The notes beneath the pieces are model-generated. The model did no database searches and was not told the DNA's origin. It was given only the letters and a program-made list of their open reading frames with translations. Shown one piece after another: positions 3,226 through 29,000 of a stretch of DNA of 64,000 nt (positions within the stretch are counted from its first letter, which is position 1; every line of letters begins with the position of its first letter). Source of the DNA: a virus (lineage: Duplodnaviria; Caudoviricetes); IMG/VR virus record IMGVR_UViG_2885360797_000005, one strand, 5' to 3'. The position numbers were made by a program, and so were the translations under genes.

Positions 3226-3789
3226 TTACACGAAGATTATTTCTACGTTGTGGACCTTGCCTGCGTTGATGATGTCCTCGCGGTTGCGCAGCTTGCTACG
3301 GACGTAGCCGAAAGTCTGCTCAAGGTAGTCCTTTGCATCATCGTTGCAGGAAAACTCCACCTGCGTGAGCGGTGCGGTCGGCGCGGATTCTTCGGGCTGT
3401 TCCTCGGATGTCGCGCCGTCCTCGGCGTTGACCTCGGCGGCCTCTGCTTCCTCGGTAGGTTCGGGGACTTTCTCGGCTTCTGCCGTGGGCGTGGGCGCAG
3501 GATTGCGCCGCTCTGCGATTGCAGTAGCAGGCTTGGGTCGCTCGATGTGGATTTCTTCATCCAGTTCTATGGTTCGGACAATGCGGATGCGTCCGCGCTT
3601 GAACTCGTTGCTGTTCTCTATTGCCTGCTGAATGAGGAAACTACTTGTGGTATATGTGGCAGGTGTCACGCCGATGGCATTCATACTGCCTCCAGTAAAT
3701 GTAACCTTGAGGGTATTCTTACCGAAGCGGATGATGCTCTGATATTCCATCATGCCCGACACGCCGTAGGTTATTCTCTTTTTTTTCAT
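3226..3789 (-). CDS. Hypothetical phage protein with acidic Pro/Ala linker
   Basis: ORF in the structural operon directly after the capsid terminator. Confidence 0.7.
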   Translation of the reverse strand: MKKKRITYGVSGMMEYQSIIRFGKNTLKVTFTGGSMNAIGVTPATYTTSSFLIQQAIENSNEFKRGRIRIVRTIELDEEIHIERPKPATAIAERRNPAPTPTAEAEKVPEPTEEAEAAEVNAEDGATSEEQPEESAPTAPLTQVEFSCNDDAKDYLEQTFGYVRSKLRNREDIINAGKVHNVEIIFV

Positions 3790-3868: not shown

Positions 3869-5446
3869 TTAGACGCTGATTACATCGCCAACCTCATACT
3901 CGCTCCACGTTGTTGTGGTCTTGGTGGTCGCGGAAGCACCCTCACCTGTGGTAGTGGTGGTGTTCTTGGCACGCCAAAGCGTACCCTTGACAGCGGTGGC
4001 TGCGATACCGGGGCAGTCGCTCAGCAGGTAGTAGATACCGCCGTCAACCGGGGATTCGGGGGCAGTAGAGCCTTCGTAGAACAGATAGTGGGCTGCGTCC
4101 TCGTTGACGTTGTCGTTGGCGGTGGTGTCCTCGCCGTTGATCCATAAGTGGCAAGAACCTTTGAGGGCGATTGCATCCCATGTGAGAATGCTCTCGCGTG
4201 TTGCCTCTTCGCCCTCCACGCGGTCAGACGATGAGTGTTCCGCGGCGAGAACGTAACGCACAAGGCGGTCGGGCGAAAGCAAGAATGCCGAATTGCTCCA
4301 GCCGAGGCGGTCAAAGGTCGGCTCACGCTTGAACTCGATGTCGCCGAACACGGTGTGAATGGCGGTGACGGTCCATCCGAACTTGTTGGTCTTGACGTCA
4401 ATCTTGACCTCCGGGTGCTTCGAGAAGTCGATGCACTGGATGTTCTCAAGGAAGTTCTTGCCGCAGAGGGCCAGGCCACTGCTCGGAACATCCTCGCCGG
4501 TGAAGAACATCTTGGCAAGGGCGATGAACTCTTCGTAAGTCCACTTGCCGATGTGCTGAATCTCTTTCTTCACCTGATAGCGCACGCCCTCGGAGAAGTA
4601 GATGTCCTGCACGCCGACTTCGGGTGTGTTCACCTTAATCTTGCCCTTACGTCCGGCAAGCAGGGAGCGGTTGGTGTCGCACTTGAACTTGGTAAGTGCG
4701 GCCTCGGCGATGATTGCCTTGGTGAACGGGATGCGTTTCTTGACGGCATCGAAGTAGTCCGACACGATGCGGTTCATGCCACGCTTCTGCAAGAACACGC
4801 GAGTGGGCTGCGGAACAAAGAGGTCGGGGTCAACTTTCTTCTGCGTTTCATAGAGCGCGTTGCCGAGCAGAATGAGTTTCGTTCCGGCAGGAATTGCAGG
4901 CGTAGTGCAATACTCAGCATCAGTGGTTGACTTGGGACCGTTCACGGCGCGACAGATGGGATTGCCTGTTGTGGGGTCGTGACCGACAACAAACAGCATG
5001 AGGTCTTTGCCGGGCGTTGCCTTGCTTCCGTCCTCGGTATAGCCGTCAACGCCAACGGCAAGCAACGTGCCGTAGGGGCGCGGAATCTGCTGGTCGTCGC
5101 CGTCAAGGGAAACTACGAACTGATTGCTTGTGCCTTTGGCAACGGCGGCGGTTGTGGTCACGCAGGTGCGAGGCTCGTCAATCATGTAGTGGTCAACTTC
5201 GGGCGATGTTACCTTGACACGCTTTGCTTTCAGCGCAATCTGCATGAGGGGTGTGTCATCGCCCTTAAACTTGTAGAGTTCTTCGTCAAGGTCGGGCTGC
5301 ACGAGGTTTCCACCGTCAATGCCGCCAGTTGCCCCTGCGAGATTGCTCACAGTAGCGGCTGCTCCGCTTACCTGCGAACTGACTCCGGCTGAGCCGGGGG
5401 TCGGGGTGGGATTTGTACCACCAACAATTACTGTTTCTCCGTCCAT
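3869..5446 (-). CDS. Major capsid protein with C-terminal extra domain
   Basis: 525 aa, follows scaffold, followed by a terminator; DTPL near the N-terminus and T.I.T.FG.I..K.E motif as in HK97-fold capsids; strongly biased codons. Confidence 0.8.
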   Translation of the reverse strand: MDGETVIVGGTNPTPTPGSAGVSSQVSGAAATVSNLAGATGGIDGGNLVQPDLDEELYKFKGDDTPLMQIALKAKRVKVTSPEVDHYMIDEPRTCVTTTAAVAKGTSNQFVVSLDGDDQQIPRPYGTLLAVGVDGYTEDGSKATPGKDLMLFVVGHDPTTGNPICRAVNGPKSTTDAEYCTTPAIPAGTKLILLGNALYETQKKVDPDLFVPQPTRVFLQKRGMNRIVSDYFDAVKKRIPFTKAIIAEAALTKFKCDTNRSLLAGRKGKIKVNTPEVGVQDIYFSEGVRYQVKKEIQHIGKWTYEEFIALAKMFFTGEDVPSSGLALCGKNFLENIQCIDFSKHPEVKIDVKTNKFGWTVTAIHTVFGDIEFKREPTFDRLGWSNSAFLLSPDRLVRYVLAAEHSSSDRVEGEEATRESILTWDAIALKGSCHLWINGEDTTANDNVNEDAAHYLFYEGSTAPESPVDGGIYYLLSDCPGIAATAVKGTLWRAKNTTTTTGEGASATTKTTTTWSEYEVGDVISV

Positions 5447-5473
5447 GGTTGGAAAAATTTTGTGATTAAAGAT

Positions 5474-5644
5474 TTATTTATTGTCGTTTTCAATGAAATT
5501 GCCTTTGCCTATTCCACCAGTCGCGGATGCAAGATTGCTGACTGACGCGGTCGCGCCTGCAACATGACTGCGGATTCCTGCCGACCCTTTTGTCGGTGTG
5601 ACCTTATAGCCCTCATCGGGGCAGTGTACCACAACGCCGTCCAT
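5474..5644 (-). CDS. 56-aa small protein paralogous to the capsid N-terminus (not in the ORF track)
   Basis: MDGVVVHCPDEGYKVTPTKGSAGIRSHVAGATASVSNLASATGGIGKGNFIENDNK*; starts 2 nt after the scaffold stop and aligns with capsid residues ~1-52. Confidence 0.8.
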   Translation of the reverse strand: MDGVVVHCPDEGYKVTPTKGSAGIRSHVAGATASVSNLASATGGIGKGNFIENDNK

Positions 5645-5646
5645 GA

Positions 5647-6387
5647 CTACATGGCTTCGCTGGCGAGGTCAAACATAGACTGCTCTTTGCGTGTCGGAGC
5701 TGCGCCCTGTCCGTTCTTGCCGCCGATTGGGGCTGTGCCGTCACCTTTCTTGCTCTTGCGCAGTTTCTCCACAACTTTTGCGTTGCGTCCTGCTATCTCG
5801 CCCTCTTCACCTGCGGCCGCTACATCGGCATCGTAGTTGAGGGCCTTGCTGGCCATGTCAAGAGTTTCGGTGCTGAACTTGCCCATAACGCCGTCACGGA
5901 CTATGCCGAGGAGGAGTTCAACGAGTTTGTCAATCTGCTCATCGCTCATGCCGCGCTCGGCCTGGAACTGACGGAGAGTTTCAAGAGTGGTGTCCATGTT
6001 CTTCTCATACTCTTCGTCCAGTTTCTTGGAGTTGGCTACGCGCTCGACATAATCCTTATTGGCTTCGGCAATCTTGTCCTGCATTTCGGGGTCGTCAAGC
6101 ACGTCCTTGATTTCCACGCCGAAGTTGCGCACAAGACCGAGAACCGGGTCAGTGCCGTTATGCATATCGGTGAGGAACTGCGCACTGCGAGGGTCGGCCG
6201 CGAACATATCCGACAGAGATTTCTCCCTGCCGCGATACCCCTCCAACTCTGCCTCGTAATTGTCGTAATCATCGGAAATCTGTCCGTAGATTTCCTCATC
6301 GTCCTCGAATTTCTTTTCGGGGTATTTCTTGCGCAGCCGTTCAAGGTGTTGGTCGCGCCTGCTCTTAACTTCGTTAGTATCAGCCAT
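5647..6387 (-). CDS. Putative capsid scaffolding protein
   Basis: Acidic, helical 246 aa upstream of the capsid gene; Gly/Pro linker and short C-terminal helix. Confidence 0.65.
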   Translation of the reverse strand: MADTNEVKSRRDQHLERLRKKYPEKKFEDDEEIYGQISDDYDNYEAELEGYRGREKSLSDMFAADPRSAQFLTDMHNGTDPVLGLVRNFGVEIKDVLDDPEMQDKIAEANKDYVERVANSKKLDEEYEKNMDTTLETLRQFQAERGMSDEQIDKLVELLLGIVRDGVMGKFSTETLDMASKALNYDADVAAAGEEGEIAGRNAKVVEKLRKSKKGDGTAPIGGKNGQGAAPTRKEQSMFDLASEAM

Positions 6388-9053: not shown

Positions 9054-11006
9054 TTATGCTGCAAGCATACGCTGTGCCTGCTGTGCGGCTTGCATATTCG
9101 CGCCCTGCTGTGCCTGCTGTGCCAGTTCGGGCGAAATCCCTTCGGGCATCTGACCCTGCTCCAGTTGTTCGCGTTGGCTCTTGATGCTCTGCAAAAGTCC
9201 GTCCGCAAATGGGAAGTCACCGTGTTCAAGCAACTGCTCTATGGAGATTGCCTGCGCTTTCCACAACTCCATCAGCATATCGTTCACAATTGCGCGGTAT
9301 GCAGGCGTTGACGTGCTTTCTACAATAGACAGGTCAAACTCAACGTCACGGATTTTCCGTGGGTCATACTCAACGATAGCCGAGTTCTTGCCTGCGATGT
9401 TGAACACTCTCGGAGTTTCGTAGTATTGCTGAATGTTCTTGACATCCTTTGTCGCGCCATCTCTGATGAACGAAGAGAACGTATCGAGCAGGTCAAGCAA
9501 CGAGGTTGTTGCGTTCTGCGCCTGCTGATTGTAGAGGCTTGCTGACATTCCCGAATAGCCAGGCTTGCCCTGCAATGCGCCGTTCACGCCCGATATGTCC
9601 TCAAAGAATTTCAGCTGCATATTCAGCAACTCGGTTATGCCTATCTGCGTGCAGTTGTTGGCAACCTGCTGTGGCAGGGCCGTGCCTGCCTTTGGCTGTC
9701 TTATCATTATCACGCCGTTGAACCGCGCCCACTCGTCTGCAATATCTTCTATTGTCATTCCTTTTGGCAGGCAGTCCTCCGGGAAGAGAAGCACACCCTT
9801 TGCACTCGCACGCATAATCCAGTCGTACATCGTGATGAGGCGGTTGGTGTATCGCTGTTGGTCGATCACGTTGCTGACTAAAGAATGAATTTCTCCGTCA
9901 ATGAACGGATACGCCTTGAAAACGTATGGGTGGCTCTTGTGTTCGTAGGGCGTTTCTCCCTCTTCCAGTATGTCGCCGAAAGGAGAGAGCAGATAATAAT
10001 ACCAGTAGGAGTCCATGAACCATTCGCACTGAATCAGAGGAACGTCACTCTCGTCCATGCCCAATTCCTGCGCCTCGCGCTTTCGCTCTCGGTTCACACT
10101 GCCGACAAATTCCTCATAGTCCTCCAGTTCGATTTTGAACACATCGCCGTTGTTTATATCGTGACAGCGGTAGCGAGGCTTGCTCTCCTTGCGCCACACC
10201 TCAATCACACGGCATCGGGTAATGTCGCGTGGAACGAGGAAATCATAGTATCCCTGCAACGGATGACCGAAAGATTCAAATGCCGCGCCCAATGCATTCT
10301 TGTCACGGGCATCTTTGTATATGTCCGCAAGACGTTTGTAGTCTGCCGGATTATGCGCGAACCGCTCACACAATTCTTCAAACGATACGTCATGCACCTC
10401 TCCGAGGCAGGACACGTCCCATCCTCGGAAGTCGCGCATATTGTTATCTATAAAGAAATTGTTAGGCTGAACATAGTCCGTCCAACAATCCAGTTTATCA
10501 TTGCGCCAGCCATACCACTTGCGCTGTACGACAAAGCCGGAGATTAAGAACTCTTCCATGCATCGGGCGTTAATCTCGGTCATGCGGTTGAGCTGCATAT
10601 TGCATTGCAGGACGGTTGACATGGTTTCGCCGTATTTCTGCTCGTCGCGGTCACGCGCCGTGCAGGTCGGCTCTTTGGCCTGACTGCGGTACACGCCCAG
10701 TACAGCCTGCACCATTCGGCGGATAAGGTTGTTCTTCAGTGCGACATTGCCCTGCGACTTGATGTAGTCCTCTTCCCTCATCATCTTGCCGTCAACGCAT
10801 ATCAAGTCATCCCACTGCCTGCCGTAGGTATAGTTCTTGTTGCGCTCTCGGTCTTGACGGAATGTCTCCATTGCCTGCCAATATTGTTGCGCTTCCCATA
10901 GAACATCAAAGGCTCGGTTGCGCCCCGTACTCTTGGCGCGTGCCACGCTGTCCAGTTCACTCTTGGGCATTACGCGGCTTGCTTTATGTAATTTCTTCTT
11001 TGCCAT
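9054..11006 (-). CDS. Portal protein (P22-like); start revised to MAKKK at 11006
   Basis: Y.GRQW, NNLI...V..V.G, IDQQRYTN, EDISGVN..LQG motifs and Gln-rich tail; -7 element lies just upstream of the revised start. Confidence 0.85.
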   Translation of the reverse strand: MAKKKLHKASRVMPKSELDSVARAKSTGRNRAFDVLWEAQQYWQAMETFRQDRERNKNYTYGRQWDDLICVDGKMMREEDYIKSQGNVALKNNLIRRMVQAVLGVYRSQAKEPTCTARDRDEQKYGETMSTVLQCNMQLNRMTEINARCMEEFLISGFVVQRKWYGWRNDKLDCWTDYVQPNNFFIDNNMRDFRGWDVSCLGEVHDVSFEELCERFAHNPADYKRLADIYKDARDKNALGAAFESFGHPLQGYYDFLVPRDITRCRVIEVWRKESKPRYRCHDINNGDVFKIELEDYEEFVGSVNRERKREAQELGMDESDVPLIQCEWFMDSYWYYYLLSPFGDILEEGETPYEHKSHPYVFKAYPFIDGEIHSLVSNVIDQQRYTNRLITMYDWIMRASAKGVLLFPEDCLPKGMTIEDIADEWARFNGVIMIRQPKAGTALPQQVANNCTQIGITELLNMQLKFFEDISGVNGALQGKPGYSGMSASLYNQQAQNATTSLLDLLDTFSSFIRDGATKDVKNIQQYYETPRVFNIAGKNSAIVEYDPRKIRDVEFDLSIVESTSTPAYRAIVNDMLMELWKAQAISIEQLLEHGDFPFADGLLQSIKSQREQLEQGQMPEGISPELAQQAQQGANMQAAQQAQRMLAA

Positions 11007-11031
11007 TGTAATTGGTATATTATGGACGGTG

Positions 11032-11074
11032 CAAAGATAACACTCTGCATCGTCCACAATCATTTAACTATTGC
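11032..11074 (-). promoter_or_regulatory. Putative late promoter for the portal gene
   Basis: Minus strand GCAATAGTTAAATGATTG-N17-TATCTTTG; overlaps an imperfect inverted repeat at 11024-11055. Confidence 0.55.
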
Positions 11075-14000
11075 TGTATGTATTCCTCTGCGAATCGTTC
11101 CTTCATTTTGTTGACCTGCACAGAATCATGAGCGACTTTCATAAGTGATACAACCTCCCGTTTGAGCCTGCGCATTTCTTCCTCGTATGTCGCCCGTTCT
11201 TCATCGGCGATTTCAGAGTCTTTTGTCGCTCTGTTCAACCAGTTGTAATCGGTTATATACTCATCCATCACATCATGCCTTGCTCCGTCTCTCGAATGTT
11301 TCAGAGCATCAAGAAAAATACTGTACCTGTCTGAGCCTCGCTCTGCCTCGTCCTCGTATTTACGCAAAAGGGTGTGAGTGCGTCTGTATTCCTCAAGATA
11401 TTTGAAGAAGTCCGAGTTTATTTTTTTCTCGGCGGTTCGTTCGTCTCCCATCTTGACAAGCCTGTTCACCAGAAGGATGCTGCTCGGGTCATACTCCCGC
11501 TCTCCGAGCATCGTCTCGCCGGTCTTGACCATCTTGTTGATTACATTTGAGTAGCCGCCGAAGTAACCGTTAAGAAGGTACTCCAGCTGCGCGGGGTTGA
11601 AATTCGCCCATCCTGCGGCATAGTTGTTCCCTCCGCTTGCCTCGTTAGCCCATCGGGATAGTTCAACGAGCTGAGTGTTGGTGCGTGGATATGCTTTTGT
11701 CCATTCGGGCATATTCTTGTTGAACGGAGTGTTTTTGTAGATGGGCAATCCTGTCCATGATGTATTTGTAGCTGTTTCCACCATGGGTTTAAACGCACTC
11801 GGAACGAATGCATGCAGTCCGCCTCCTCCCTCCATGAAGTCAAGAGGAAGCAGTTGCGAGAGTTGGGATGCTGTCTCTTTCGCCAGTTCTGCGTCTGAAT
11901 ACTCTTCCCTTCCTGATGTCACACTGTAAGCGAGTTCTCCAAGACCATAAATTGCCCGGTATTCAACCGGTAGTGGAATTGTTAGCCATTGTTCGCCGAA
12001 GCGGAACATCAGATTCGAACGGCGCGTGTACTTCGGTACGTTATAATATCCATTCTTATCCTCATCATCTCCGTCATCCGCCAGTAACGCCATTATATAA
12101 CCCAACAGCAAAAGTGAGGTTGCGGCTGTGATAGACTTGACAGGGTGCTTGCGGAATGCCTTGCCGAAGTTCGCCGTGCCTTGTATGGCAGCATTCCAGA
12201 ACACATAGAAACTCCTGCCGAGACCGGAAGTGAATCCGGCAGCTTTGCCTGCAAAAGTCTGTCCCGTTGCATCCATGAATTTGCTGCCAGCTCCCTTCTT
12301 GTTGAAATTGACGGATATTTCCTTTGCATCATACGCAGACCTCTGTACGTCTCTTCCGACCTCTCGCGATGTTATGAAGGCCGCGAATCGCGCACTGTTC
12401 TCCACTGCCCGGTTTATCTGGTCGAGGTTGTTGCCGATAAGACCAAGAATACTCATCGGATTCAGCTGCCCCCTGCGGGCCTCTTTCATTATTTTTGATA
12501 CAAGCTTCTTCTCCTGTTCAAGATTCCGCTGCAAGGTATAGCCGGTCTCACCACCCCAATGCATGAACTCATAGAACATTCTGTGCATTGGATTGCGCAT
12601 ATCAAGTTTATTCGCCTCATATAGGTGCAGAAGCTCGACCATGCGTATGGGATTGACCTTGGCGTGGTTCTTGTGGAATCTCATCGCATAACCTTGATTC
12701 TCCTTCACATGTACCATCGTGTTGGAATATATCAGGTCTCGGATAAAGTTCGACACAACAAAGTCGGGGTTTCGTGTGGTGTAGAGCTGGCTTAACTCCC
12801 GGTTGACGGTTGAGGCTATATTGAACACTTTGCCGATAGCACCGTTGAGGTCATTGTCGGGATTGGTAAGCCCGTTGACTGCCTGAGCAGCCCTCGGATT
12901 GCCGTTGATGGTGATGACATAACTCTCGCCGTTGCGTTTCACTACCACTTGATGTTCTTTGATATTGCCGTCAACAATACGATACGGTATGCCGATAGCG
13001 TCTCGTCCTCGCTTATACTTGTCCGGTTCCGATTGCGACAACGACTCCATGCGCTCCTCGAAATCCATCACAACTTTGTCTATCTCATCCGGTGTCATGT
13101 TTTCGTCCACATCGGCAAAGACAGGCTTCCATGTATCCGTAATTTCGTCATGGACCAGCCATAGTTTATTCACGCTTGCAAGGTCGCTCGGATGATTCTG
13201 AACATATGTGAGGAATTTCTGCTTCATGACGTTGCGGTTACCTTGTATGATACTGTTCTGCGCCATATAGGCAATCGTGGCCAGTGGGTCATCCGCCTTA
13301 GATTTTCGCCCTTCCGCTTTCTTTATTGGACTGCTGAACGCACCCTTTTTGCTTGTCAGATAGCCATACACATCATCGCTCGTCTTCTCGTCAAAGCCTT
13401 GCAGTGGAATGTAGAAGTTATACATATCTCGAATCTTCTCATACTGCGCCTTGCTTATCAAACCGCAATTATAGATTTTCTGCAAAGATGTTTTGGTAGC
13501 TTTGTTTACTGCACTCCACAATGCAGGGATATCTGTTGAATGCGCCGCCTCGTAATCGTCAACCATTTGCTGCGCCACGATTTCAGCGTTCTGCCAGTCC
13601 GTCTCTCCGGTCAGACCGCATAACCCGGCAAAGTCTCGCTCTGATTCTTCTCCATTGGCAATAGCTTCATTACGCATATAGGCATTACGCTCCAGTCCAT
13701 GCTTGGCCATCATATAGTCCAACAGCTCTTCACGTCCTCTTTTATCACCGGACATGCGAGCGGCTATATCAAGGAGAGGGCGCAGGATGCGATGTTCATA
13801 CTCGTCCATTTCAGCATGGCTCTTACTGCTCATAAGGTTTTCTGCTATGTATGCGTTCTCAAAACTTGACACATCCTCTATGTCGCGTTTTGCACCTTGA
13901 CTTTCCACGGCTTTGTAGAATTCCATAAGTCCTCGCATGGAATCCTGCATAGCCTCGGTAAACTGGTACATACTTGACTGTATCTGCTTCTCATACATGG

Positions 14001-17000
14001 CACGAGCCATCACCGGGACGCGCTCCACATAGTCAGCCCCGTCTCTGAATCTCACATCTTCGTCTCCGTCAAATGTCGGATTCTCAAAAGTTTTTATTAC
14101 CTTTGCAACATCTTCCAAGTCAAGATAGTCAACGTCAGCGAGAATCGTTCGCTGTTTGTCTATTAAGGCTTGGATTTTTTGTTTGTCTGCATAAAGCAGC
14201 TTCCCTTGCGAAATCCAGTTCAGCCATTCGGCGTTGTGCTTGGGGAATACATTTCTTACGCTGTTTATCTCCAGCGCTTTGCCATTGACAATCGGATTTA
14301 GGGAAAGTCCTACGATAAATTGCTTGCCATTGCTTTCAATTCCCACAATAATATTCTGCATCTTCCCCTTGTTGCCGTAGGCGAATACTGCCATAGGGGT
14401 CTGCAGTTCCTTCACAAGATTCCGTATCTCCGCCAAATCAAAATCATGCCCATATTCGGTTGCTTTGGCACGTAGTCTTGTGGCAGACATCTGAATAGGC
14501 AGATTGGGAACACCGGTGGAGCGTAAAATGTTACTTGGCATTCCTAACTGATAAATATGGCCGTCAGGAAGATTCCCATCAACCTGCCGCTGTAATTCTT
14601 TATTGAAACGATTGTTGGCGTCCTCAATTTTGGCAGATTCGCTCAACATAGCCTCGCCCCATCCCGTACGGTGACGCATAACGGCATCCTCGGCATCGGC
14701 GAACACGCCGCCTTTGCCCTGTTTATCGCGCATATTCTTCCATGACTTGAAGAGGATATATGAAAGGTCTTTATCGTTGAGGCGTATGCTCTTGGCAATT
14801 TTTAAACCGCTCAGGAATTTGTCCAGGAACGATTGAACCTTTGCCTTGATTTTACCCCAGAGCGTCAGTTCGTCACGGCTCATCTTCTCAAAACCCTCGC
14901 TGCCGATACGACCGGCGAGATCTGCCATATATTCCTCAGTGGCTTCCTTGCGGAAATCCTTGCGCTTTGCTTCGGCCTCAACTCGCGCCTCTGCCATGTC
15001 GGTGTAGTAATTGGCGTTCACATCTTTCCCGGCTCGCTCGTGTGCCTGTGCCTTGCGAGTGCGCAGGCGGTCGGCTTCCTCGCTCACCATTCTGTCGGTC
15101 ATCTTGTCAATGACTTTGCGGATGGGATTTGAGGCATGGTCGTAAATCTCGCCGAGGAATTCATCGAAGCGTTCCTCTCCTACGAGCGCACGCAGGCCCT
15201 TGTGTCCTGCAACTTCATGGACAAACGTATTGTCCACATCGGCTACATTGACGTTGTTAGGCAGGACGATGACAACCTCATCATCCTTTGCGCTCCACCA
15301 GCCTTTGGCACGCCTCTCTCTGCGAGTGGGGAGTGCATCGGCCTCTTCCTGCGTCCTTACAATACGGACTGGGGTGTTGGCTCTTGCCGACAGGTCGGCG
15401 ACACGCGCTTCTTTGGCTTCGGTCGATGATTCGTAAGCGTCAAGGTAGGCGCGTGCCTTTTCAAGACCTGCGTCCCATTCGCCTGCGTTCACTCGATCGC
15501 GCAGCTCATTGAGCATGGGTATGTCGGCTTCTGCCACGCTTCCGCTGATGTCACCGAACTTTGCGCCACGTTTGGCGAGTTCGGCACGGAGCATCGGGGG
15601 AACGGCATTTATGGGGAACGTAATCTTTTGGTTGCCCACGCGCTCCATGATGAGGTCTGCAACCTCGCTCCACGGAACAATGCGCCCCGGCTTGAAATAG
15701 CGCGACAGCATGGTCTGAACCTTGGTGTCATCGCTCAACTGACCGTTGACGCTTCCGCTGTGCCAGTCCATAAGACCTACGGAATCCTTTGCGCCCTCGG
15801 CCTGATAGCCGCTCGTTTCCTCGCTTTCGGGATAGTAACCCTCGACAACAAGAAGTTCGGGTCGGTCGTAGGCGGCTGTGAACTGGTCGTTGAGCGGAGA
15901 GGTACGGATATGGAAATATGGATTGTAGGCCACATCCCCGGTGGTGCGTCCGTTACCCTGCACAAGGTCGGCTTTGCCGTTCTCCTTGCGCATACCCTCT
16001 TCGCTCTGCTCCCAACGGCTGAATATCATCGGCGCACGCCATTCTCCGTTCTGCTTGGCGGTCATGGGTGGCAATACGCCCATGTTCGCCCACTGCGAGT
16101 AGCGGTAGCCTTTCTTCAGCGGCTGTGCGTCAAGGAAGTCAAGCAGTTCACGCTCGGCGACAAGGCGATACTTATTGCCGTCCCCTGTGGTCGGGGTGTC
16201 AGTGCTGTCCTCATCGGTCAGAGTGATGTCCGAAGCGGTTTCTACCGATTTGTCAAGTTCGGCATACTTGGCTTCTTTCTCTGCCAATTCTTTCTTCATG
16301 GCTTCCTCATACTTGGCAAGACGCTCTTTGGCTTCTGCCAGTTCCTGCTTGTGTGGGAACTCACGGCCGTTGCGCTGTTCAAGTTGGGTTCGTTCCTCGG
16401 TGTAATGAGCGAGTTGCTGTTGACCCCTGCTAAGGAGTTCACGGCTCTCTCTGCCAGTCACAATGTCCTCGGCGATTTTCTGCATTATGTTCTTTAGACG
16501 GTTGCCCTTGATGGCTTGGTCTTTAATGCCGAGTTCCTCGCAGGAATATGTGACATTGCGCTCCGGCTCAAACGTCAGAGTACCCTGACCCTTGCTGTCA
16601 ACGGTTCGGCTGACGGTCGTTGTGACCTCAAATTTCAAGCCGTCAACATCGACCACAAGTTTACTGGTGTAGTTGTCAGCACCCTCACGGACATTCTCGG
16701 CCGCCTCGTTCATCTTGGCATTCTGCTCTTTGAAGAAATCATCCATAGCAGCCACGCTGTCGAATGTGAGTTTGCCGATGGTTATCTTCTTGATAGTGCC
16801 GTCGGGGAAGTGTGAACCGATTATTTCAAGGTTCTTGGTTTCAATCTCGATGCGGCGTTCAGCACCTTTGATGAAGCCCTCAACCTTTGGCAACTGGTTG
16901 TGAACATAAATCTGATCGAGGTCGTGACCTTTCTGCTTGGCGGTAAGATTACGAACCTCGCGCTCGGCTTGATTCTTCAGTATGGCATACTCACTGCCCG

Positions 17001-20000
17001 AAAGTTGCGCGGTCATGTCGCCGAAAGAATCTTCTTCCTCTTCCAGTACGCGGTTTTCCATTGAGTTCTGCATCATCTTTGAGCCGTTCATGATTGAATC
17101 GGCTATCGCGCCTTTGGTTTTAAGACGCTGATATGCGGTTACGTCAAGGCTGTCCTCAACACCGAAACGGATAATGCGGACCGGTATGTCCATATCCTTG
17201 TGCAGGTTGCCCTGTCGCAGGGCGCGTCCGTTGCGCTGTGTGTAGTCCATCGGGCGGTTGGGCGCGTCCACATGGATGAGGGTGTGCAGGCGTTCCTGTA
17301 TGTTCACGCCAGTACCGAGAGTAAAGGTTGAACCCATGATGACACGGATTTCACCTGCGTTGACTTTCTCGAAGATGTCCAGTTTCCTCTTGACAGTCAT
17401 ACCCGGCTTGATGACAACTATCTGCTCGGCAGGAACGCCCTCGGCTATGAGTTTCTTGCGAATGTCCTCATAGAGGTTGAATCCGCTCTGCTTATTCTGA
17501 TAGTTGTCGGAGAAGATTGCGACTGTGCCTTTGTATTTCTCGCTGTCGCGGAGTGAGCGCAAGGTTTCGCGCACGGTCGCATTGGTCTTGCTGTTGGGGT
17601 CATCTTCGGCGTTGGGAACGACAAGGCGCACGTCAACGGCGGCTGCCTTTGCAATGCCGTACATCGTGAGCGGAATATGGCTGTTCTCTTTCTTCTCCTT
17701 GCCAGTCATATTGTCGTAGCGGTCAAGTTCTGCCTTGACGTACTTCATGACACTGCGCATGGCGCGGGTTTGCGGCAGGTAGATGTCCTGTGGCTTACCG
17801 CCTTCCATATCGGGAATCTTGTCGCTTACACCGCCTGCCTCGCGTGTGAGGACAGTATCGGCGACACTGCTCCATATACGCACGAGTTCGGGCAGGTTCA
17901 CATATCCGGCGAAGCGGTTGTTCTCTTTGAACTTGCCGTTGGTCGAGAACTCTACCATCTGCGCGATGTTGCCGAAGTTGCGGACAAAATCGTCAAAGTA
18001 GTAGATGCCGTAGGATTTCATCGTGTCAACTGGCATGAGATAACGCATGAACGTCCATATCTCGGCGGCTGTGTTGGAGATAGGCGTACCAGTCGCAAAC
18101 ACTACGTTGCGTCCGTTATTGCGCTCCATGACAGCCTGCGCCTTTAGGAACACACCCTGCGACTTCTTGCTGTATGAGGGGTCAACGCCTTTCACACCGC
18201 GTTGCATGGCGGTGGCGAAGCCGAGGTGCTTGTATTCGTGGGCCTCGTCCACAAGTATGGCGTCAATGCCCATATCGTCAAAGTTCTCCACATCGTCAAC
18301 CTCGCGGTCGAGCATTTCCAGTGCGCGAACCTCGGCGTTCTGACGAGTGGTGGCCTCGCGCTTCTCATCGCGTTTCTTCTTCTTGCCCTGCATGGTTTCG
18401 GTCAGTTCGGCAAGTCGCGCTTCCTGCTCGGCAAGTTCCCTTTCGGCTTGGCGAACAATCAAACTGCGACCGTCTGAATCAGCCTCGCGCATGGCTTCAA
18501 GAACTTTCATCTTCTCTTCGATGATGTCCTTGACGTATGCCATTTCGCGCTCCTCGCTGTCGGGGATGCGCTCAAATACGGACTGGGGAACGACAATCAT
18601 GTCCCAGTCGTTGTACTTGATTTTAGCATAGAAGTTCTTGCGGCCCTCGGCTGTGCGGTCGGCTTCCTCAATCGTCAGCACCTTTGCATTTGGATAGATT
18701 TCCTTTGCGCTCTCCACAAACTGACCGACTGTCGCGTTCTGAACGACAATCATAGGCTTGCGTGCTGTGCCGAGTCTGCGCATTTCCATAGCCGTGGTGA
18801 TGAGTGTATAGGTCTTGCCAGTACCTACCTCATGTGCAAGCAGGATAGGTTCGGTAGTTCCTCTTACCACGGCTCTGCCTTGATGAGGACGCAGGGCAAA
18901 GGGATTGCCGTGCAGCTCGCTTACTTGACCGCCGAAGTGCTGGGGAACGAACTCGTCCGGGATAGACATAGGCACATAGTTGTTGAACTGGTCGTTGTAG
19001 GTTTGCTCGATGCGTGCCGACATTGCAGGGTCAGCCTGCATATGCTCACGCGCCCAGTCCTTGAACTCTGCGCGTATCTCGTCAACTTTGGTGCCGCACT
19101 CGGCGGTGGCCGCCTTGTCGGTTATCGTTTTGGTTGAGCCGTCATAGTGCTTCTCGGTCTTGCTGACGGTTATCTGCCTGTTGGTGATGGCGGCTTCAAT
19201 GAGTTCGTGACCCATGATTGTCTTGTCACACATCTTGCTGACAACAGCCATAGCGCGGTTCTTCTCGTTGAATGTACTCCACGGAGTTTTCATGAACCAT
19301 GTACCGCCTGCGTTGGTGAGAGTGACGCGCAGACCAGTCTTTTCAAACACGAAGTCCTCATATAGTTTCGGCTCGATCCACGATGAACCCAACGAGAACT
19401 CAATGAGGTGCGCAGGTATGGTCATCGGCATAACTCCCTCAAGAGCCTTGATATTCGCGTCATACCTGCCGTCAGCATTATTCTCCTGCGCAATATGCAA
19501 TTTCTCGCGCACATTTCCCGAAAGGTATTTGTACGATACCTCCATTGTGCCGGTCGACGGATTTTCAAAGCCGGGTCCGCTTGACACGATTTCGCGCTTC
19601 ACCTCCTCGGTCGGTTTGCCGAGGGCCTGGCCGATATATTCAACATCAACACCGCCACTCTTGTATAGGCTTGCGAGGATAGCGTCTTTGATGGTGGTAG
19701 GCTGTGGCTCTTTCTCGGTGTCAATAACTCGGTGGCTGAAGATGTCAGTCTTGCCGACCTTGACAACCTTGTTGCCCTTCTTATCGCCTTTCTCGGAATA
19801 AGTTTCCAGTGCAAGGATGCTTGAGAAGTCAACATCGTTGCGCAGGAATGAGATTGCGGTGTTCTTATGCAGGTTGCCGTAGGTGCGTGTGAATGTGTCA
19901 AAGGCGCGGTTCAACTCTTTCAGAAGAGGTGCAAGTCCCTCGTCACCCTCATTGCTCGACTGGTATTCAAGCACATCAGACAACGCTTTCTTGATAGCCG

Positions 20001-23000
20001 AGTATGCTTTGAAACACTCCGCTTTGGTGTGACCCTTGACCTTGTTTTTGTTCAGTCCGAGGGGAACAGCCTCGCCCATTCGTGCCATGCAGAGTTCGCC
20101 CTGCGAGTTCAGCACCATGCTTCCCTCCTTGACACCCTCGCCGAGTTGCTCATTGATTCGGGTTATCTCATCTTCGACTTTCGGCGCGGCTGTGGCTTCC
20201 TCTTCCATGTCGGCGAAACTGCTTGCCCATTCGGACAACATCTTCGACTGTTCCTTTTCCTTGACTGGGAAGAGGGCGCGACTGGTCGGGAAGCGTGTTT
20301 CACCACGCTCAAAGTTGAACATCATCTCGCCTGCCATATTCTCCGGATGTTCCGCAAAATATTTGTTGTACATCATGCTGTACTGCTTGATGACGGGAAT
20401 TTCCTGACCTTTGACCTTGCGAGTGTCGCCAGTATCATAGTCAGCCACGCGCACACCTATTGCATCCGTCACGTCTATGGCATTAGGTGAGGGCTTGCCG
20501 TTGACGCGCTTGCGCACAACGATGATGTCCGAGGTTGCCCCGGTGCCTCCGAATGTCTTGTTGTGCATACGGAAAGCACCTACAACGTCAGCATTACCCT
20601 CGCCGATAATCCAAAGGCGAAGTTCCTTTGAGTTGTCCATCGTGCCGCTTGACGTGATGAATATGCCAATACCGCCCTCGCGGAGTTTGCGGATATTCTT
20701 CGCAATGCAGAAATCGTGGATGTCATGGAATTTCTTGGAGAGGTCTTTGTCGCCTGTCTCGTCAAACACTTTCGCACCAGTTATGAAAGGCACGTTGGTA
20801 ATGGCGAGGTCAACGGTGCCGTTCTGCACTCGCGTTTTCTCAAAGCCTTGTATCTCCACCTTGGCATCCGGGTAGAGCAACGAGAGGATTCCGCCAGTGG
20901 TGCGGTCAATCTCAACGGCATGGATTGAGCTGCGCTCACTCATGTCGGTAGGCATAAGTCCGATGATATTGCCGATACCTGCTGACCCCTCAAGCACGTT
21001 GCCGCCCTTGAAGCCCATAGCGCGTGCTACATCCCACATGGTGTCTATGACCTCGGCAGGAGTGTAGTAAGCGGAACGGCGGCTGTCCACAGCGTCTTGA
21101 TAGCCGTCCTCGCCCAGTAGTTCTTTCAGACGTTTGGCAATCGGGTTCGGAGTATAGCCCTGCTCATTGAAAGCCTTGCCCAGTCCACCCCAACCGCTGA
21201 ACTTACGGAGTACGGCCATCTGTTCGGGTGTGGCGGTTTCGCCTGCGTCAAGCAGTCGCTTGGCAAGTTCGATCGCTTCCATATTGGCCTTGATGCGTGC
21301 GTCCTCGCCTTTGGGGGCATAGTCAACGCCACGCTCGGCATGGTTGTTGCGGACATTCTTCCGCTCCGATTCGGGGACCGGCTCAATTACTGGTTGGCTC
21401 TTAGGCTTTCGAGGTACGCCTGCGCCTCGCTCTCCGTCAGACATAGGATTGACGCTACTACGTCCACCCATTCCTCGTCCGTCAGTTCCTTTAACTTCAT
21501 TCCGTTGGCTCTCTCCCAACGGTTCATGCGATTGAGGTTCGTGTCCTCTTTCTCGCTCGGCAGTGCCGGGGCGAGGTTGTACGTCAGTTTCTTCATGATT
21601 GCTTGAGTTTTGAGTGTTATCGAATAGGCCGCCGAACAAATCTCCGACAGGTTGTTCCGGCTTCAAAGTTACATCTTTTTTGCGAGAACTTCGCTTCTTC
21701 TCCTGTGCGGCTCTTGCTACACGCTTTGCCTCGCCGAAGATTCCATCGGCAGGCTTGACGCGGCTCCAGTCTCCCTTTTCTGACATGACATCCTTGACAG
21801 CCTCAAAGATAGGCCCACCGTCAGTGTCAAAATCTTCTATCTTGACTTTCTCCCAATTGCCGTTGCCGTAACGGTCCCACATGACCTCATCGCCGACCTT
21901 GTAGCCGTTGTGAGTCACGTCTACTTTTCGCTCTTCGGCAAGCTGCGCTTCAACTTCGGGAGTGATGGTATATGGAGATTCGCCACGTTCTGCCATATCA
22001 GACCATTCATGCCAAAGCTCATCTACAGACTTTTCTTTAGGAAGATAGTCGCGTGTAATCTCTTTTACCCTGCGCAGAAAATCGGCATAGGTTGATTCAA
22101 CCGGGGCATACATATTGTAGCCCCAACGTTCCATACCGCTCCCATTCGGATTTTCCACCCGGTATAGTATCCGCTCAACGGCAAGATTGTCACCACGTCT
22201 ACGTGTGCCTCTTTCTGCAACTGGTTCAAGACCGATATAGATGGCGAGTATTCTTCCCTCGTTGAGAGGGAGATTTACAATTACGTCACCACCTGCCGGG
22301 GCGATGTTCGCTCTTACCGCAGTGCCTTTCTTGACTCTCTTGCGGCCGAGCGTGGTCGCACTCGTGACTTTAATGTCAATGCCGAGGTCGTTTACCAACT
22401 GCTTTGCAAGTTTTGTAGCATCTGCCACGGCTTTTTTCTCTGCTGTGAGCATATAGCCGTAACTCTCATGGAACTTTGAATCGTCCTCAACGGCTTCATA
22501 GTAGCCGAGGACTGCCAGTTGGTCGTTGATCTCGTCAAGTGTTTGGTCAATCAGTTCTGAGGCTCGGTTGAGTTCGCCTGCGTCTGCTGAAGTTTCTGCG
22601 ATACTTTCTGCCTCGCCTGCAACAGCCTCTGCTTTTTCTGCAAGAGCTGCTGTATCTGCTTCTGTCTGCTTGTCATTTTCTCTTCGGTTTTTGTTTCGGG
22701 TTTCGGTAAGTTCTTTCTGCGCCTGCGCGGATGCGGTTGAGGCTTTGCGCTCTTCCACAATCATAGCCGCCTGCGCGATTGGGTCAGCCTGCTTCTTGTC
22801 GAAGTTCTGCACGTCAAACGTGGCAACCTGCTCGGTCGGTGTAAAGGTATATTTGTCATAGCCGGGTGTCCAGCGTGCGCCCTCATAGAACGATTTGAGC
22901 CACGGACGTATCTTGTCGCCCAACAATCCCACCATCTTGGTGGCATAGTCGGGGAATGCCGTTGTGCCTCGCTCGATAAGACCCATAGCAAGACGGATGC

Positions 23001-26000
23001 CTGCGGACTGGATGCGCTGACGCTCCTGCGCTGTCAGTTCGCCGGGGTCGCGGAACTTGATGTTGGTGTCGCCCTCGTCATCGCCTATGCCCAACAGGTC
23101 GCGCAACTCGTCAGCCAAAGACTTCATTTCGTCATCGCTGATTTCGTGCTGTTGCTCCGGCTCTGCCTTGACTGGTTCGGCGTGGTCGCTCAACTTGGTT
23201 TCTCCTTTGGTCGACAGGTCGGTCATCACATCTTCAAGGCTGACGCGGTTGATAGGTGCTTTCTTCGGCTTCCGTGCAGGCTTCTTCTCCGCAGGAGCCG
23301 CAGGAGCGACAGCCTCACGGAGTTCCTCGGCGGTCATTGGCTGTGCGTCCGCAACCGCTTCTTCGTTGCCAATCATCTCGGCGAGTTGGCGTGCGGCTTC
23401 CTCACTGCGCATCATGTAACCGCCCTGCTTGCGGTCATACCAACCGCGAGAGGTTTTCTTACCCTCGGTGAGAGGCTCACGCGCGAATGTGTCAAGAGCC
23501 GCCTTTTGCTCGGCGGTCAGTTCGCGGTTGAACTTGACAAGGTGAACATCGCTCGTCTTGCCTTTCTTGTTGGTGTAGGTTGTCGGCGTAATGGTGTACG
23601 GTTCAGAACTTTCCGCGCTCTCCGTTTGTTTATCTGCTGACAAAGTATTAACTTTGCGGTCAGAAGGCGAGTCGAGCGTAGGGCCGGAAAGGGCACCGGC
23701 CTCCTCCGAAGATTCGGAGGGCAGTATGAGGGATTGCCCGTCCTCACGCTCTTTCCCCTTAACATTATTGTCGGACGTAGGAACAAGGTCCGGTCCCTCC
23801 GATTCACTCGGAGCCTCGGTTAAGTACCTTTCAGAACTGGGGGACAAACTTTCAGAGAGATGTAGAATTTTACCATTCTGCATCTCTTTCTTTATTGCTT
23901 TACCCTCGGCTTCATGGCTGCTTATTGATACCTCCATGCCGTCACGCTGAACGGTTACAGATTCAAAATGCACAAGACGGCTTCCATCGGATTTGATGAA
24001 CGTCTTTACAAACAGATATTTGCTGTCTCGCTCTGCACCTTCAGCAGGTGCGTTTTTCTCAATGATGACATCGGGAGTGTTGAGTGTAGGATGTATCATG
24101 CTGAAATACTCTGTCCTTTTCAGTGAGTAGAGTTTCAGCAACTGGTTTGCACCCATCTTGACAATGCCTATGGGAGTTTCAACAGTGCCGTCCTCTCCGA
24201 ACTGGGCAATCCAGTTTTCGGGCGTGAGTTCAATTGAGGGAGCGACTTCGGCGGTTGCTTCCATTCGTGCAATCAACTCCGTTGCTTCCTGCTCGGTGAG
24301 TGAGCGTCCAATCATGCCGTTGCCCTCAATAGCCTTGACGCTCTTGTACTCGGCAAAGGGCTTGGTCTTACGTCTGCTCGACTGAATCCACTTCTTGAAC
24401 TCTTCCTTGCTGACGTGGGTAATCGCGCCGAGACCGGTCCAACCCGGCTCATAGTTGGAGAGGTATGCGTAACGCGCGGCCTGCTCCGTGGGGAAGCCGT
24501 ACATAACCTTATGCTCGTCAAACGAGCCGTCCTCGTTCACTTGGTCAACGACAAACACATCGCCCTCTTCGGGAGTGTCGGAAAGGAACACGTCAATGTG
24601 GTCGCCGTCCACGCCCTCAGTCCCACGGATATATCCGTAGTCGTTCTGCATGGTAGTTTCCCACGGCTTGCCGTCCGCTCCAGTACCTCGGCGTACACTA
24701 CCTTTGGCGTTCTCAATGCTGACGTTGTAGCCGTCAACCTTGCGATGTTCCATCTTGTAGTTGCCTGCGGCTTTCTGCGCCTCAGTCGGTTCGGACTGCA
24801 TACCTCCGTCAACCTTTAGCTCGGCGGACGGATGTCCATCAATATACTGGGCAATCTCGGCGATGTCGCCAAAACGCTTGCCGTCAAATTCAAAGTATGA
24901 GCCTGTGTAGTGTCCGTCCTCATTGGGTGCGTCAACTTGCGTAACTATGTGAGTGCCGTCAATGATGATTTCACACTTATAAGTGGGCTTGTCACTGTCA
25001 CCCTCTTCCCAGTCGTTTTCAGTAATCTCAACACGGGCCGCGAGTGCCTGCTCTTCGGGAGTCAGTTCCTCGCGAGTGCCTGCTACTGGCTGTTGAGGCT
25101 CTGCACTGCGTTCAACATCATTCGGAGTTTGTTCACTTTCTTGGTCTCGTCCAAGCTGTTCTGCTTCTGCTCTGCGCTTGCGTTCCGCAATGGCAGCTTC
25201 CACGAGTGCCTGCTGTTCTTTGGGGGTTGCATTTCTGAAATGTTCGTTTACATTGGTGAGTATTTCTTCTTTTGAGGGGATCGAGCCTGAAAACATGTCA
25301 AGTTGACCGCCCGAAGCTTGTGCAGCCTCGTTGTTGTATGAGGTCAGCACCTTGCGCAGGTCGCTCGGCTTACCGCTGTTGAGAATGTCTGCAAGCAGGA
25401 GTGCGGTCGCGTCAGTCACACGGCTGTCTCCAAACTCATCATCAAACAATCCCTGCATACGTCCGAAGGGCGACACTGGCATTCCATCGGTATATACGTC
25501 CGGCATAGCGGCCTTGGCGCGAGTAACAAGGTCTACAGCCTTTGCAAGTTCCTCGCTGATGTCGTAGCCGTTTCGGGCAAGAGTGCGGTTATTGGCAATC
25601 TCATTCAATCCCATAACGATTGACTGGCGAAGTGTCGGCATAGAGATTATCTGACGCACTGCATCGGGCGAGGTTTGGAACACCTTGCCGATAAGAGTGT
25701 TTTCGATAAGTTCCTTTCCTGCGGCCGACAACGCCGTGCCTGTCCGCAGTTCGGGCATCTGCATATCGTTGATGACTCCTGCCTGCATGAGTGCGCCCAG
25801 TGCGTGAGCTACGGCTTTCTCGTCAGCATAGTAGTCCGAGAGGCGGTCGTAACGGCTGATGTCGTTGACAATGACGTTGAACACATTGTCGGGGACAATC
25901 TTTCCGAGTTTCACGGCGGCTTCGGGCTTGCCCTGCGATTTCTTCTCCTGCGCGTTGAACCGAGCAAAGGTTGTGGCATCGTAAGGAAGAGCCTCGTCCG

Positions 26001-29000
26001 GCACGAACACCACGCGCGGATTCTTCATACTTGCCACCTGCTCCGGGGTAAAGCCGTATTTCTTGTGTCCGAACTGCGCGAGGTAGTCATTGTATGCCCT
26101 ATCTGTGCCTTGACGCGCTGCGAGGTCGCCCGACATGGTGCGATTGTTGCCCGACAGCACCACGCCGTCCTTGCTCACTATTACTGGGTCTTGCAGGGCG
26201 CGGTTGTCATAGTTGCCTGCCATACCCTCAACTTTCTGCTGTGCGTCCTTATCACGCTGATAGTCGCGGTCGTTGACGCTTTGGCCGTTCTCATCAATCG
26301 GGAAACCCTCGGTGGGTGCATAAGCATTGTTCACATCATGGCTCGGCGAGGCGGCTCCTGCCTCGGTCAGAATGTATCTGCCGGAGATAGTAGAGCCGTC
26401 GGGCAGGGTCAGAGCGTCCTCGTTACCCTCCACCTTAGGAGCGGACTCCCAACGCTCGCGTATCTTCGGATTGACGGCATGAACGCCGATGCGCTCCTGC
26501 TCGGCCTGCTTCTCTGCCTTGATGCGCTGTTCCTCTTCAAATCGGGCGACAGCCTTATCATGGGCGATTGCGTCACGCTGACGGCGTTCCTCTTCCTGCT
26601 GACGGCGCAGCTCGGCTTTGCGCGTGTTGTGGACGGCAACAATGCCGTTCCATGCGTCAATGCGTGCCTGCGCCTCGGCAATCTGCTGATTGTACAGGGC
26701 GAGGTCGTTCTGATACTGCTCGGCTGCCTTGCGCTTGGCTTCTGCCATGGCCATGGGCGAACCTTTCAGTTTGGGGGCCTTCATTGTCGGCGGCTTCTTA
26801 TTGAGAGCTTCGAGGTCGGCGGTCGCCTGCTGAACCTGCGCCAAAGCGATTTCAACGGCATCATCCTCACCGCCGACAGCCTCAACAAGACCATCCCAGG
26901 CCGTTTCCTTATCCACGGCTTCAAAACTCGGCTCTCCTTTCTCGTTGAGAGGAATGCGCGAGAGTGCGGTCTGCTGTCCGTTTTCTACACTTGGGACCGT
27001 TTCGGGCGCGGTTTCTGCGTCTGAAACTGGGTTTTCCGTAGGATTGGGAACGCTTTCGGGCATTTCGGGAACGCTCTGCGCTTCCATAGCCCTGTTCTGC
27101 TGTTCGTATTCGTAAGCCTCAAGCAGACCACGTCCGAAGTCAGTCAGACGGTTGGAATCGGCGCGGAGGTTCTCAATCTCGGCGTTTAGTTTGACATCAT
27201 CGAAATTCTTTGCATCGTTCAGTCCGCTTTCATAGCCTCGGTCATACGCCTCGGTGTCGGCGGTCGCAGGTGCTTCCGCTTCGGGCTGGGCAAATGGGTC
27301 TATATCGTCCTGCTGTGGCTCTTCTCCCTCGGCAGATTCTTCGGGGGCAACGGCATTGTCGCCAAAGATATTCATCTGCTCCTGCTCGATCACCGACAAA
27401 GCGGTGTCCAGTTCGTCCTGCGGATTGACAGCCTCGGACACTTTGAAGATTTGGTCGGGGGATGTAAACTGATATTCCCCGGTCTGCGCGTCCATGACAA
27501 CGACACTCTCCGAAGAGTTGTGTACGTCAACGGCTGTGCCATCGGGGAACATTACAACATCACCCTTGACAATATAGACCGGTCGGTCATCCACTTTCAT
27601 GGTGGCAGGAATAATCACGCCATTGTCCTTGTGGGTGCGCTTGGCAACACTTTCCTCAACCTCGGCACGCTTGCGGTCGGCAACCTCGTTGGATGCGTCC
27701 ATAACGCCGTCAAGAGCCGCCTTCGCATTGATGTAGTAGAGGACAGCGTCTTTCTGCTCAATAGTCAGTTCGGGGTCATTGACCAACGCCCACGGATTTT
27801 CATTCACATGGAACATATAGTATTCGGCTTCAGAACCGAAAGCGTCCTCAACCGCTTGGTATGCTTCCTGCATACGCAGGGCGATAGCGTCCACGTCTGC
27901 CTGCACGGTCGGGTCGCCCTCTTCAAAGCGTCCGAACAACTCACGGCCCTGCTCATATTGGCTTTGCGCCTCTGCCTGCTCCGCAGTAGGCTCTGCGGCC
28001 TGCTGACGTACCTCTTCGGGAAAGAGCCGTTCAAGATACGTCTTGACGGCATCCTGCTCCGCTTTGGTGCGCTTGCTTGGCATCTTGCGCAGGACTGCAT
28101 CTACATCAATGCCAGTTTCCTCTTTCAGAGCCTCGCGGATTGCTTCGGGGCGATAGCGGTCGGCAATGTCGCGGTTGCGCTCCATAGCATCATCAAGGAA
28201 CTCAACCAACTGCTTCTGTGATTCGGTCACGTCCTTGTTACCGGCCTTGACTTCGCGATAGATTCTCTTGATGGTTGCAGGGTCGGCACCGGGCGACACC
28301 TCGCTGATAGCGGCATCAAGCACCATGTCATCGGCAACGGCCTCCTTGTACCGCTCACCAACGTCCACCGAGTTGAGTTCTGCCTGACGCATGATGTTGT
28401 CGGTTTCCTGCTTGGCTTCCTGCTCGTTCTTGAACGTGCGACTGGTAACGACCTCGCCATTGGCGGCTATGGAGTTGACGGTCACACGTCCGTCAGCGTC
28501 CGTGTTGGTGGTGTAACCAGTAACGGAAGCCATCGGAAGTCTGCGCCCAGTAAGTATGTAGTAGGCTTTTGCGCGTGCGGACTGGCTCACATTGCCGTCC
28601 TGCATGAGTTCTTCCATTGAGGAATAGCCGTCAAATTCGGGATTACGGCTGATTGTTTCAGCCTCAACGCGCTCTGCTCTCAACTCAATCGCTCCCTCGG
28701 TAGGGTTTGGTTGAGATACTTCCTGCACTCGGTCACGGCTGAACAGGTCGGCGAGTTCGCCATAGCCTGCCCTGCGCAGCTCTTCGCGCTCATCGGTGGT
28801 AAACCGCATTGCCTCTGCTACACGTCCGGCATCGTCAGCCCCTGTGAGATTGTTTATGTTGGCAGGGTCAAGAGCCTTGCGGATTCTCTCCTCGAAGTCC
28901 ATGCGGTTGTGGTTGCGCTCTGCCTGCGTCAGCGGTCGGCCGTTGACTGGCTTGACTGGGCGCAAACTGGCGATAACTCGCGGTGCGCTCTTGAGTCCGT

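Follow-up and report, generated by a model that had tools for sequence, protein, structure and literature searches.

The stretch of DNA analysed here, 64,000 nucleotides long and called the window throughout, harbours a gut Prevotellaceae prophage, from a phage of ∼64 kb, and forms part of contig C322 in a 2.88-Mb assembly that is 94%-complete. The head module of this phage lies on the minus strand and runs from the portal gene through a scaffold-like gene and an open reading frame of 56 amino acids to the gene for the major capsid protein (MCP). Coordinates are collected in Table 1. No head protease gene is evident in the window between the portal and MCP genes. The putative scaffold role of the protein encoded upstream of the small frame is read from the position of its gene and from its charged, helical composition only. 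For the MCP, an AlphaFold2 model built from 26 sequences is of moderate confidence (pLDDT 64) and retrieves HK97-fold capsids in Foldseek: the best match is 9in6, the capsid of Vibrio phage VP1 (E 1.9e-18), and crAss001 is also among them. A comparison of the MCP sequence and profile with PDB sequences gave no match.

Table 1. Genes and features of the head module, with their positions in the window
Feature	Position	Strand	Basis
P22-type portal	9054-11063	-	Pfam, E 1e-41
Large terminase		+	
Scaffold-like protein, 246 aa, charged	5647..6387	-	phrog_22323, E 1e-98; PHROG function unassigned
Small gene, 56 aa + TAA, paralogue of MCP residues 1-55	5474..5644	-	Open reading frame, MCP homology
A/T-rich spacer of 27 nt, small-gene TAA to MCP ATG	5447..5473	-	Sequence
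MCP, 525 aa, HK97 fold, SU10_MCP / DUF5309 type	3869..5446	-	Pfam PF17236, E 2.1e-10
MCP codons 1-55, source segment of the small-gene copy	5282..5446	-	Alignments

Two further genes flank this module. Upstream of the portal gene, a single reading frame of 6613 amino acids (11068-30909, minus strand) is open under the standard bacterial code, translation table 11, which argues that no stop codon is reassigned in this phage. Directly 3′ of the MCP gene (3226-3789, minus strand) a protein of 187 amino acids is encoded, whose N-terminal part (MKKKRITYGV...) is conserved and gives way to an Ala/Glu/Pro-rich linker. Every relative has this protein, a possible decoration or head-fibre protein.

Among cultured phages, the temperate BS-TP4 and BKO1-TP3 of Bacteroides come closest; the study that describes them (PMC12694917) includes no proteomics of the virions. 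Their capsid proteins are only ∼26% identical to the MCP of the window. As annotated, both capsids (BS-TP4 gp11, L046:4834, and BKO1-TP3 gp47, L047:4818) begin with a hydrophobic, signal-peptide-like stretch, MKKTMSFFCRITLMILAF..., which is absent from related capsids; the annotated start is probably too far upstream in the two cases.

The small frame is open from ATG to TAA, and in the window the TAG stop of the scaffold-like gene stands 2 nt ahead of its start codon. Its product had been described in the original prediction as a gapless match to the capsid N-terminus with a common MDG start, and this likeness is confirmed: residues 16-54 align by BLASTP with MCP residues 14-52 without a gap (25 of 39 positions identical, E 1e-13) and both proteins begin MDG. 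Profile–profile comparison extends the homology to the full length of the small protein, with residues 1-56 matching MCP residues 1 to about 56 (probability 99.4%, E 2.7e-21). Common to the two sequences are the initial MDG, a brief ‘E-V-V’ run, a link rich in Pro and Thr, and the series G-S-A-G ... Q-V-P-G ... T-V-S-x-x-A-x-A-T-G-G-I-x-x-G-N ... E-x-D, and the positions conserved within the small family are the same as those conserved in the MCP segment: G.AG, Q, G, TVS, A.A, TGGI, GN and E.D. The small protein ends one or two residues past the Asp of E-x-D, at the point where the first predicted helix of the MCP (residues 51-61) begins. At the DNA level, the two copies in the window agree at only ∼56% of positions, share no identical run beyond 8 nt and are saturated at synonymous sites (pS 0.72).

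Only the small frame and the MCP match a motif HMM, whether it is run on the window or on all 2.88 Mb of the assembly, and a targeting tag shared by several virion proteins was rejected on this ground. The eight motif matches in an 895-residue protein (P0152) are chance matches in a repetitive Ig-like protein, to which hhalign assigns a probability of 24%. With the scaffold-like protein, the small protein shares no sequence similarity according to hhalign of the family alignment A4 (probability 0.1%). The free-standing proteins have compositional traits of their own: at least one Cys, at varying positions, is present in 66% of them but missing from all 47 MCP N-termini compared, and Lys is the last residue in 58% of the small proteins.

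A survey of relatives through the MCP yielded 45 IMG/VR loci, of which 43 span the scaffold–MCP junction (L032 and L034 start inside the MCP gene). In all 40 of these 43 loci that encode an MCP at least 67% identical to that of the window, the small frame occupies the same place, starting 1-4 nt past the stop of the scaffold-like gene and ending 25-29 nt before the capsid ATG. It is intact in 39, with 56 codons and a TAA stop. The single disrupted copy, in L013, lacks one C from a run of eight within the small frame (L013:3990-4010 compared with L016:4038-4058), which is most likely an assembly or homopolymer error, a slippage-prone site being the alternative. The placement between scaffold-like and capsid genes that had been noted at the outset is therefore constant in relatives, and the frame, whose disruption or absence in relatives would have spoken against a functional gene, is kept in 39 of the 40.

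Among genome contigs, 14 of 16 contain the small gene. It remains syntenic down to 67% MCP identity, and the small proteins of related loci measure 52-56 amino acids and fall to 27% identity to that of the window. In most lineages the small gene overlaps the scaffold-like gene or is separated from it by 0-4 nt, irrespective of relative frame, and the distance from the small-gene stop to the MCP start is 21-32 nt in most loci and 65 nt in L051. All six divergent members examined lie between a scaffold-like gene of 244-284 codons (cut by the contig start in one case) and an SU10-type capsid gene; in five, the start codon overlaps the upstream stop or comes shortly after it, and in the sixth it comes 4 nt later.

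Rfam and RNA folding around the small frame revealed nothing, and the spacer RNA is weakly structured (-7.8 kcal/mol, z 0.66). Across the upstream junction (5640-5656, minus strand), the sequence CCAUG-UAGU-CAUGG, which joins the 3′ end of the scaffold-like frame to the beginning of the small one, can pair as a hairpin of 5 bp with the scaffold stop in its loop. The stem is 4 bp in clade B, and such an element would fit release of the start codon by a terminating ribosome. In the window and its closest relatives the small frame is moreover in frame with the MCP gene (5447-5644, minus strand), separated from it by one TAA and nine codons. This relation looks like chance; a single stop-codon mutation in the window would yield an MCP with a tandem N-terminal domain.

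The family extends far beyond these loci. A word-indexed search returned 27 clusters of 52-70 amino acids, and an exhaustive profile search of 1.8 billion representatives gave 107 matches: ∼80 are free-standing proteins of 42-70 amino acids, each of which stands for one 50%-identity cluster, and the rest are capsid N-termini. One variant alone is present in 495 blocks of the contig collection. A small protein 100% identical to that of the window is encoded in a Prevotellaceae MAG, and the same arrangement of genes is found in reference genomes of Prevotella, Prevotellamassilia timonensis Marseille-P2831T, Muribaculaceae (including the cultured Isolate-002) and Duncaniella. As the copy in P. 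timonensis lies inside a 1.23-Mb contig, it represents an integrated prophage. Four loci (L060, L061, L062 and L065) place a Bacteroidales-type head module in bins labelled Eggerthellaceae, Sphaerochaetaceae, Anaerovoracaceae and Oscillibacter, labels that are probably binning errors in the assemblies of one study. In one protein of 78 amino acids (P0155) part of the G-S-A-G-L motif region is repeated internally, the mark of a further duplication inside the small gene.

No Pfam, PHROG or NCBIfam model or name exists for the family, and the ESM Atlas offered no usable neighbour for the small protein. A literature search found no paper on the family, and a search of the phage collection found no cultured phage that carries the gene. 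The small gene is real, old, widespread and unnamed.

Substitution patterns testify to selection on the protein. In the annotated frame only, pN/pS lies between 0.15 and 0.41 (Fisher p down to 5e-6), as against at least 0.8 in the other two frames, which contain stops. Nei–Gojobori dN/dS, calculated for unsaturated pairs, is 0.10-0.38 for the small gene. In clade B, omega is 0.29-0.38 for the small protein and 0.12-0.18 for the MCP segment, so the former evolves somewhat faster. Over 13 lineages, the small gene and the MCP segment are ∼52-61% identical in DNA, with pS of 0.61-0.85 (saturated) and no identical run longer than 16 nt. The paralogues are nonetheless 43-56% identical in protein, and as synonymous sites are saturated this likeness must be held by selection; recent gene conversion, which the short identical runs and the saturation contradict, was rejected. 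The small frame is a working gene under purifying selection on its protein, not the scar of a duplication. Selection on the protein, which the original prediction had deduced from an intact frame in diverged DNA, is fully borne out by the kept frame, the pN/pS values, the saturated synonymous sites and the ∼80 diverged clusters, and dN/dS is not neutral.

The divergence of the small gene tracks the 3′ end of the scaffold-like gene and the 5′ end of the MCP gene equally (Spearman 0.69 and 0.65), with the consequence that recombination history singles out neither neighbour as a partner. The head module is itself a mosaic: between the window and L036 the capsid genes are near identical (dS 0.11) while the scaffold-like and small genes have diverged (dS 0.33-0.48), values that place a recombination junction near the boundary between the small gene and the capsid gene.

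Deeper relatives lack the small gene. These are L040-L042, with an MCP 49-56% identical to that of the window, and the phages BS-TP4 and BKO1-TP3. In L040-L042 the N-terminal motif of the MCP is kept and only 23-66 nt separate the scaffold-like and capsid genes; a relocated small gene was not found, each record giving a single match, the MCP itself. The complete genomes of BS-TP4 and BKO1-TP3 gave zero motif matches, and their capsid N-terminus is degenerate. In a tree of 102 small proteins and 47 capsid N-termini, which is weak as it is based on 55 columns only, the labels ‘small’ and ‘capsid’ require 5 changes, compared with ∼40 for shuffled labels, and a tree that keeps all small proteins together is not rejected (AU p 0.69). 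The simplest reading of these alignments would be one old duplication of the first ∼55 MCP codons inside the phage clade, a large group of temperate, podophage-like viruses of gut Bacteroidales in which the small gene has been kept as a separate cistron. The small protein is slightly more similar to the MCP N-terminus of its own phage than to those of other lineages (identity 0.514 versus 0.488, permutation p 0.0002, in 16 lineages that are not independent; 0.51 versus 0.46 when 8 lineages are compared). The effect is small and stems from few columns, and gives no more than a hint of co-variation between the small protein and its cognate MCP.

The N-terminal segment of the MCP is poorly resolved in the capsid model, in which residues 1-63 stay below pLDDT 50 and the first helix spans residues 51-61. 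The small protein, modelled with AlphaFold2 from 98 diverse family members, gives a mean pLDDT of 83 and a pTM of 0.53, with no residue below 50. Short strand pairs are predicted at about residues 18-19, 25-27, 45 and 51, and a helix at residues 35-42 covers the T-V-S-N-L-A-x-A-T motif. The confidence of this model makes it more likely that the copied segment is a small folded N-terminal domain than a purely extended arm, and the small protein is accordingly predicted, on modelling grounds, to be a compact mini-domain. The original prediction, which had spoken of a copy of the capsid N-terminal arm, thus stands as regards the copy, which comprises MCP residues 1-55; the notion of a mere floppy arm does not, as the deep-alignment model depicts a compact mini-domain that ends where the first MCP helix begins. 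Searches with the model against the PDB (Foldseek and VIA-align wide) and BFVD gave no structural match, which would be weak evidence of a novel fold for an irregular chain of 56 residues.

Taken as a whole, these observations point to a functional gene, derived from an old MCP duplication, whose product, a free-standing mimic of the MCP N-terminal domain, would act in head assembly; we give this reading a probability of roughly 0.5. The small protein appears to keep the contact residues of the MCP N-terminal domain and is devoid of the HK97 body that forms the shell, from which it would follow that it binds whatever the MCP domain binds. If the partner is the same, the small protein probably works in head assembly. 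The candidate favoured here is the scaffold-like protein, with which the small protein would be co-translated: the junction between the two genes is typical of translational coupling. In this version, the small protein would tune or cap the scaffold–capsid contact during procapsid assembly or scaffold release. The other putative partner would be a neighbouring capsid subunit, at the site where the N-terminal domain docks.

The arrangement of the start signals bears on both amount and partner. The start of the small gene is set in G+C-rich coding sequence and would depend on re-initiation. The MCP gene, by contrast, is provided with a separate start region, A/U-rich and unstructured, and the small protein is for this reason probably less abundant than the MCP. 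From the same arrangement, the amount of the small protein would seem to be tied to that of the scaffold-like protein. That this start adjoins the stop of the scaffold-like gene in most lineages and is separate from the MCP start region is also the argument, a weak one, for preferring the scaffold-like protein as partner. The small gene would not be essential to this type of capsid, since L040-L042 have the same MCP N-terminal segment and assemble without it. The Cys content and the terminal Lys are left unexplained by a role as an assembly mimic.

Alternatively, and as a tentative second choice, the small protein could be a minor component of the virion, a role put forward in the original prediction together with modulation of capsid assembly or size: the free N-terminal domain would fill sites in the shell at which the MCP domain is missing, for instance at the portal vertex, where a penton is replaced, and would there complete the local contacts. 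A contact motif identical to that of the MCP segment and a predicted fold that is autonomous are what such a component would need; low expression by re-initiation would fit a few copies per particle, and a homotypic contact between domains would be in keeping with the weak co-variation seen with the MCP N-terminus of the same phage. Against it, the small gene is absent from phages that share this MCP N-terminal segment and portal type, and a protein present at ∼5 copies has no obvious need of so tight a link to the scaffold-like gene.

Some bacterial systems, CapRel and Lit among them, are activated by major capsid proteins or their peptides. Capsid sensing of this kind lends some plausibility to an anti-defence decoy, in which the free domain would block a host sensor of the MCP or act on the assembly of a competing phage. 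Related lineages can do without the small gene, as is often the case for accessory counter-defence genes, and the small protein evolves faster than the MCP segment (the clade B omega values given above). We consider a decoy quite improbable all the same: the gene keeps to one place within the core of the head module, in a coupled arrangement with the scaffold-like gene and not in a variable accessory region, selection on it is purifying rather than diversifying, and no defence sensor is implicated.

Still less probable is a peptide devoid of function, either as a relic of the duplication or as a translated spacer that hands ribosomes on from the scaffold-like gene to the MCP gene. The coupling-like junction and the short spacer before the MCP start are what a ribosome relay would leave, but the amino acids are conserved while synonymous sites are saturated, the length is held over ∼80 diverged clusters (42-70 amino acids), the motif positions are conserved as they are in the MCP and the fold is predicted with confidence. 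The MCP, in addition, has its own unstructured A/U-rich start region. A non-coding element or a leader uORF was rejected on similar grounds, as the peptide is not free to vary. A recoded product, by read-through of the TAA into the MCP or by frameshifting from the scaffold-like gene, can be practically dismissed: in the window the small frame is in phase with the MCP gene, 198 nt from start to start with a single TAA between, but among relatives all three frame offsets to the MCP (0, 1 and 2) occur, which excludes a fusion by either route; in most of them the small gene overlaps the scaffold stop or begins 1-4 nt past it, with no fixed recoding event conserved, and the stop is always an efficient TAA.

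The small protein adds to the usual description of HK97-fold head assembly, which is given in terms of capsid, scaffold and portal and sometimes of a protease and decoration proteins. What is new is a conserved, small, partial capsid paralogue in phages that are common in human and animal gut Bacteroidales. Cultured strains carry the prophage, namely P. timonensis Marseille-P2831T (L067) and the Muribaculaceae Isolate-002 (L069), and render experiments feasible.

A true full-length homologue of the small protein is the N-terminal segment of its own MCP, residues 1-55, with the same conserved positions. The small protein differs from this segment in being a separate cistron without the shell-forming body, in containing Cys (66% versus 0%), in often ending in Lys and in evolving faster. 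To our knowledge, none of the head proteins described so far is a free duplicate of just the capsid N-terminal domain.

A comparable case emerged within the T4 genome. Residues 3-40 of gp61.1, a protein of 54 amino acids annotated as hypothetical, are 45% identical to residues 58-95 of the capsid protein gp23 (E 1.4e-5), a stretch that spans the propeptide cleavage site. Like the small protein, gp61.1 is a free-standing mini-protein resembling an N-terminal stretch of the MCP of its own phage; unlike it, gp61.1 is encoded near the primase gene, outside the head module, and the two are not homologous. A literature search found no paper that treats gp61.1 as a capsid mimic. The sequence likeness suggests that free copies of capsid N-termini arose more than once, and it makes the idea of a free capsid N-terminus testable in a model system as well as in inducible prophages. 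A bolder extension, which we regard as unlikely, is that the small family and gp61.1 exemplify a general, overlooked class of mini-genes for free capsid N-terminal domains; in its most far-reaching form, the free domain would not be a building block but a decoy for host capsid sensors or a checkpoint peptide for scaffold release.

Other head proteins resemble the small protein in one respect each. The T4 vertex protein gp24 is a head component that originated by duplication of the MCP gene: it is a paralogue of gp23 and a full HK97-fold subunit that forms the pentons. In gp24 a whole HK97 subunit has been duplicated, whereas in the small protein only the first ∼55 residues have been; at 56 amino acids, and ending before the first MCP helix, it is devoid of a complete HK97 fold. 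Decoration or cement proteins of the lambda gpD type are small head accessories that add to the contacts made by the N-arm and E-loop of the MCP. Neither gpD nor decoration proteins of the TW1/P74-26 type share a fold or a sequence family with the small protein, and decoration genes are not paralogues of MCP genes. For the proposed mode of action, the reuse of a contact motif from a head protein, the closest analogy is CpmB of SaPI1. This small protein of a parasitic element mimics the scaffold, namely the C-terminus of the 80alpha scaffold protein, and in doing so reuses a contact motif of capsid assembly. The small protein of the gut phages differs in that it mimics the capsid protein, is encoded by the phage itself and bears no similarity to the scaffold-like protein.
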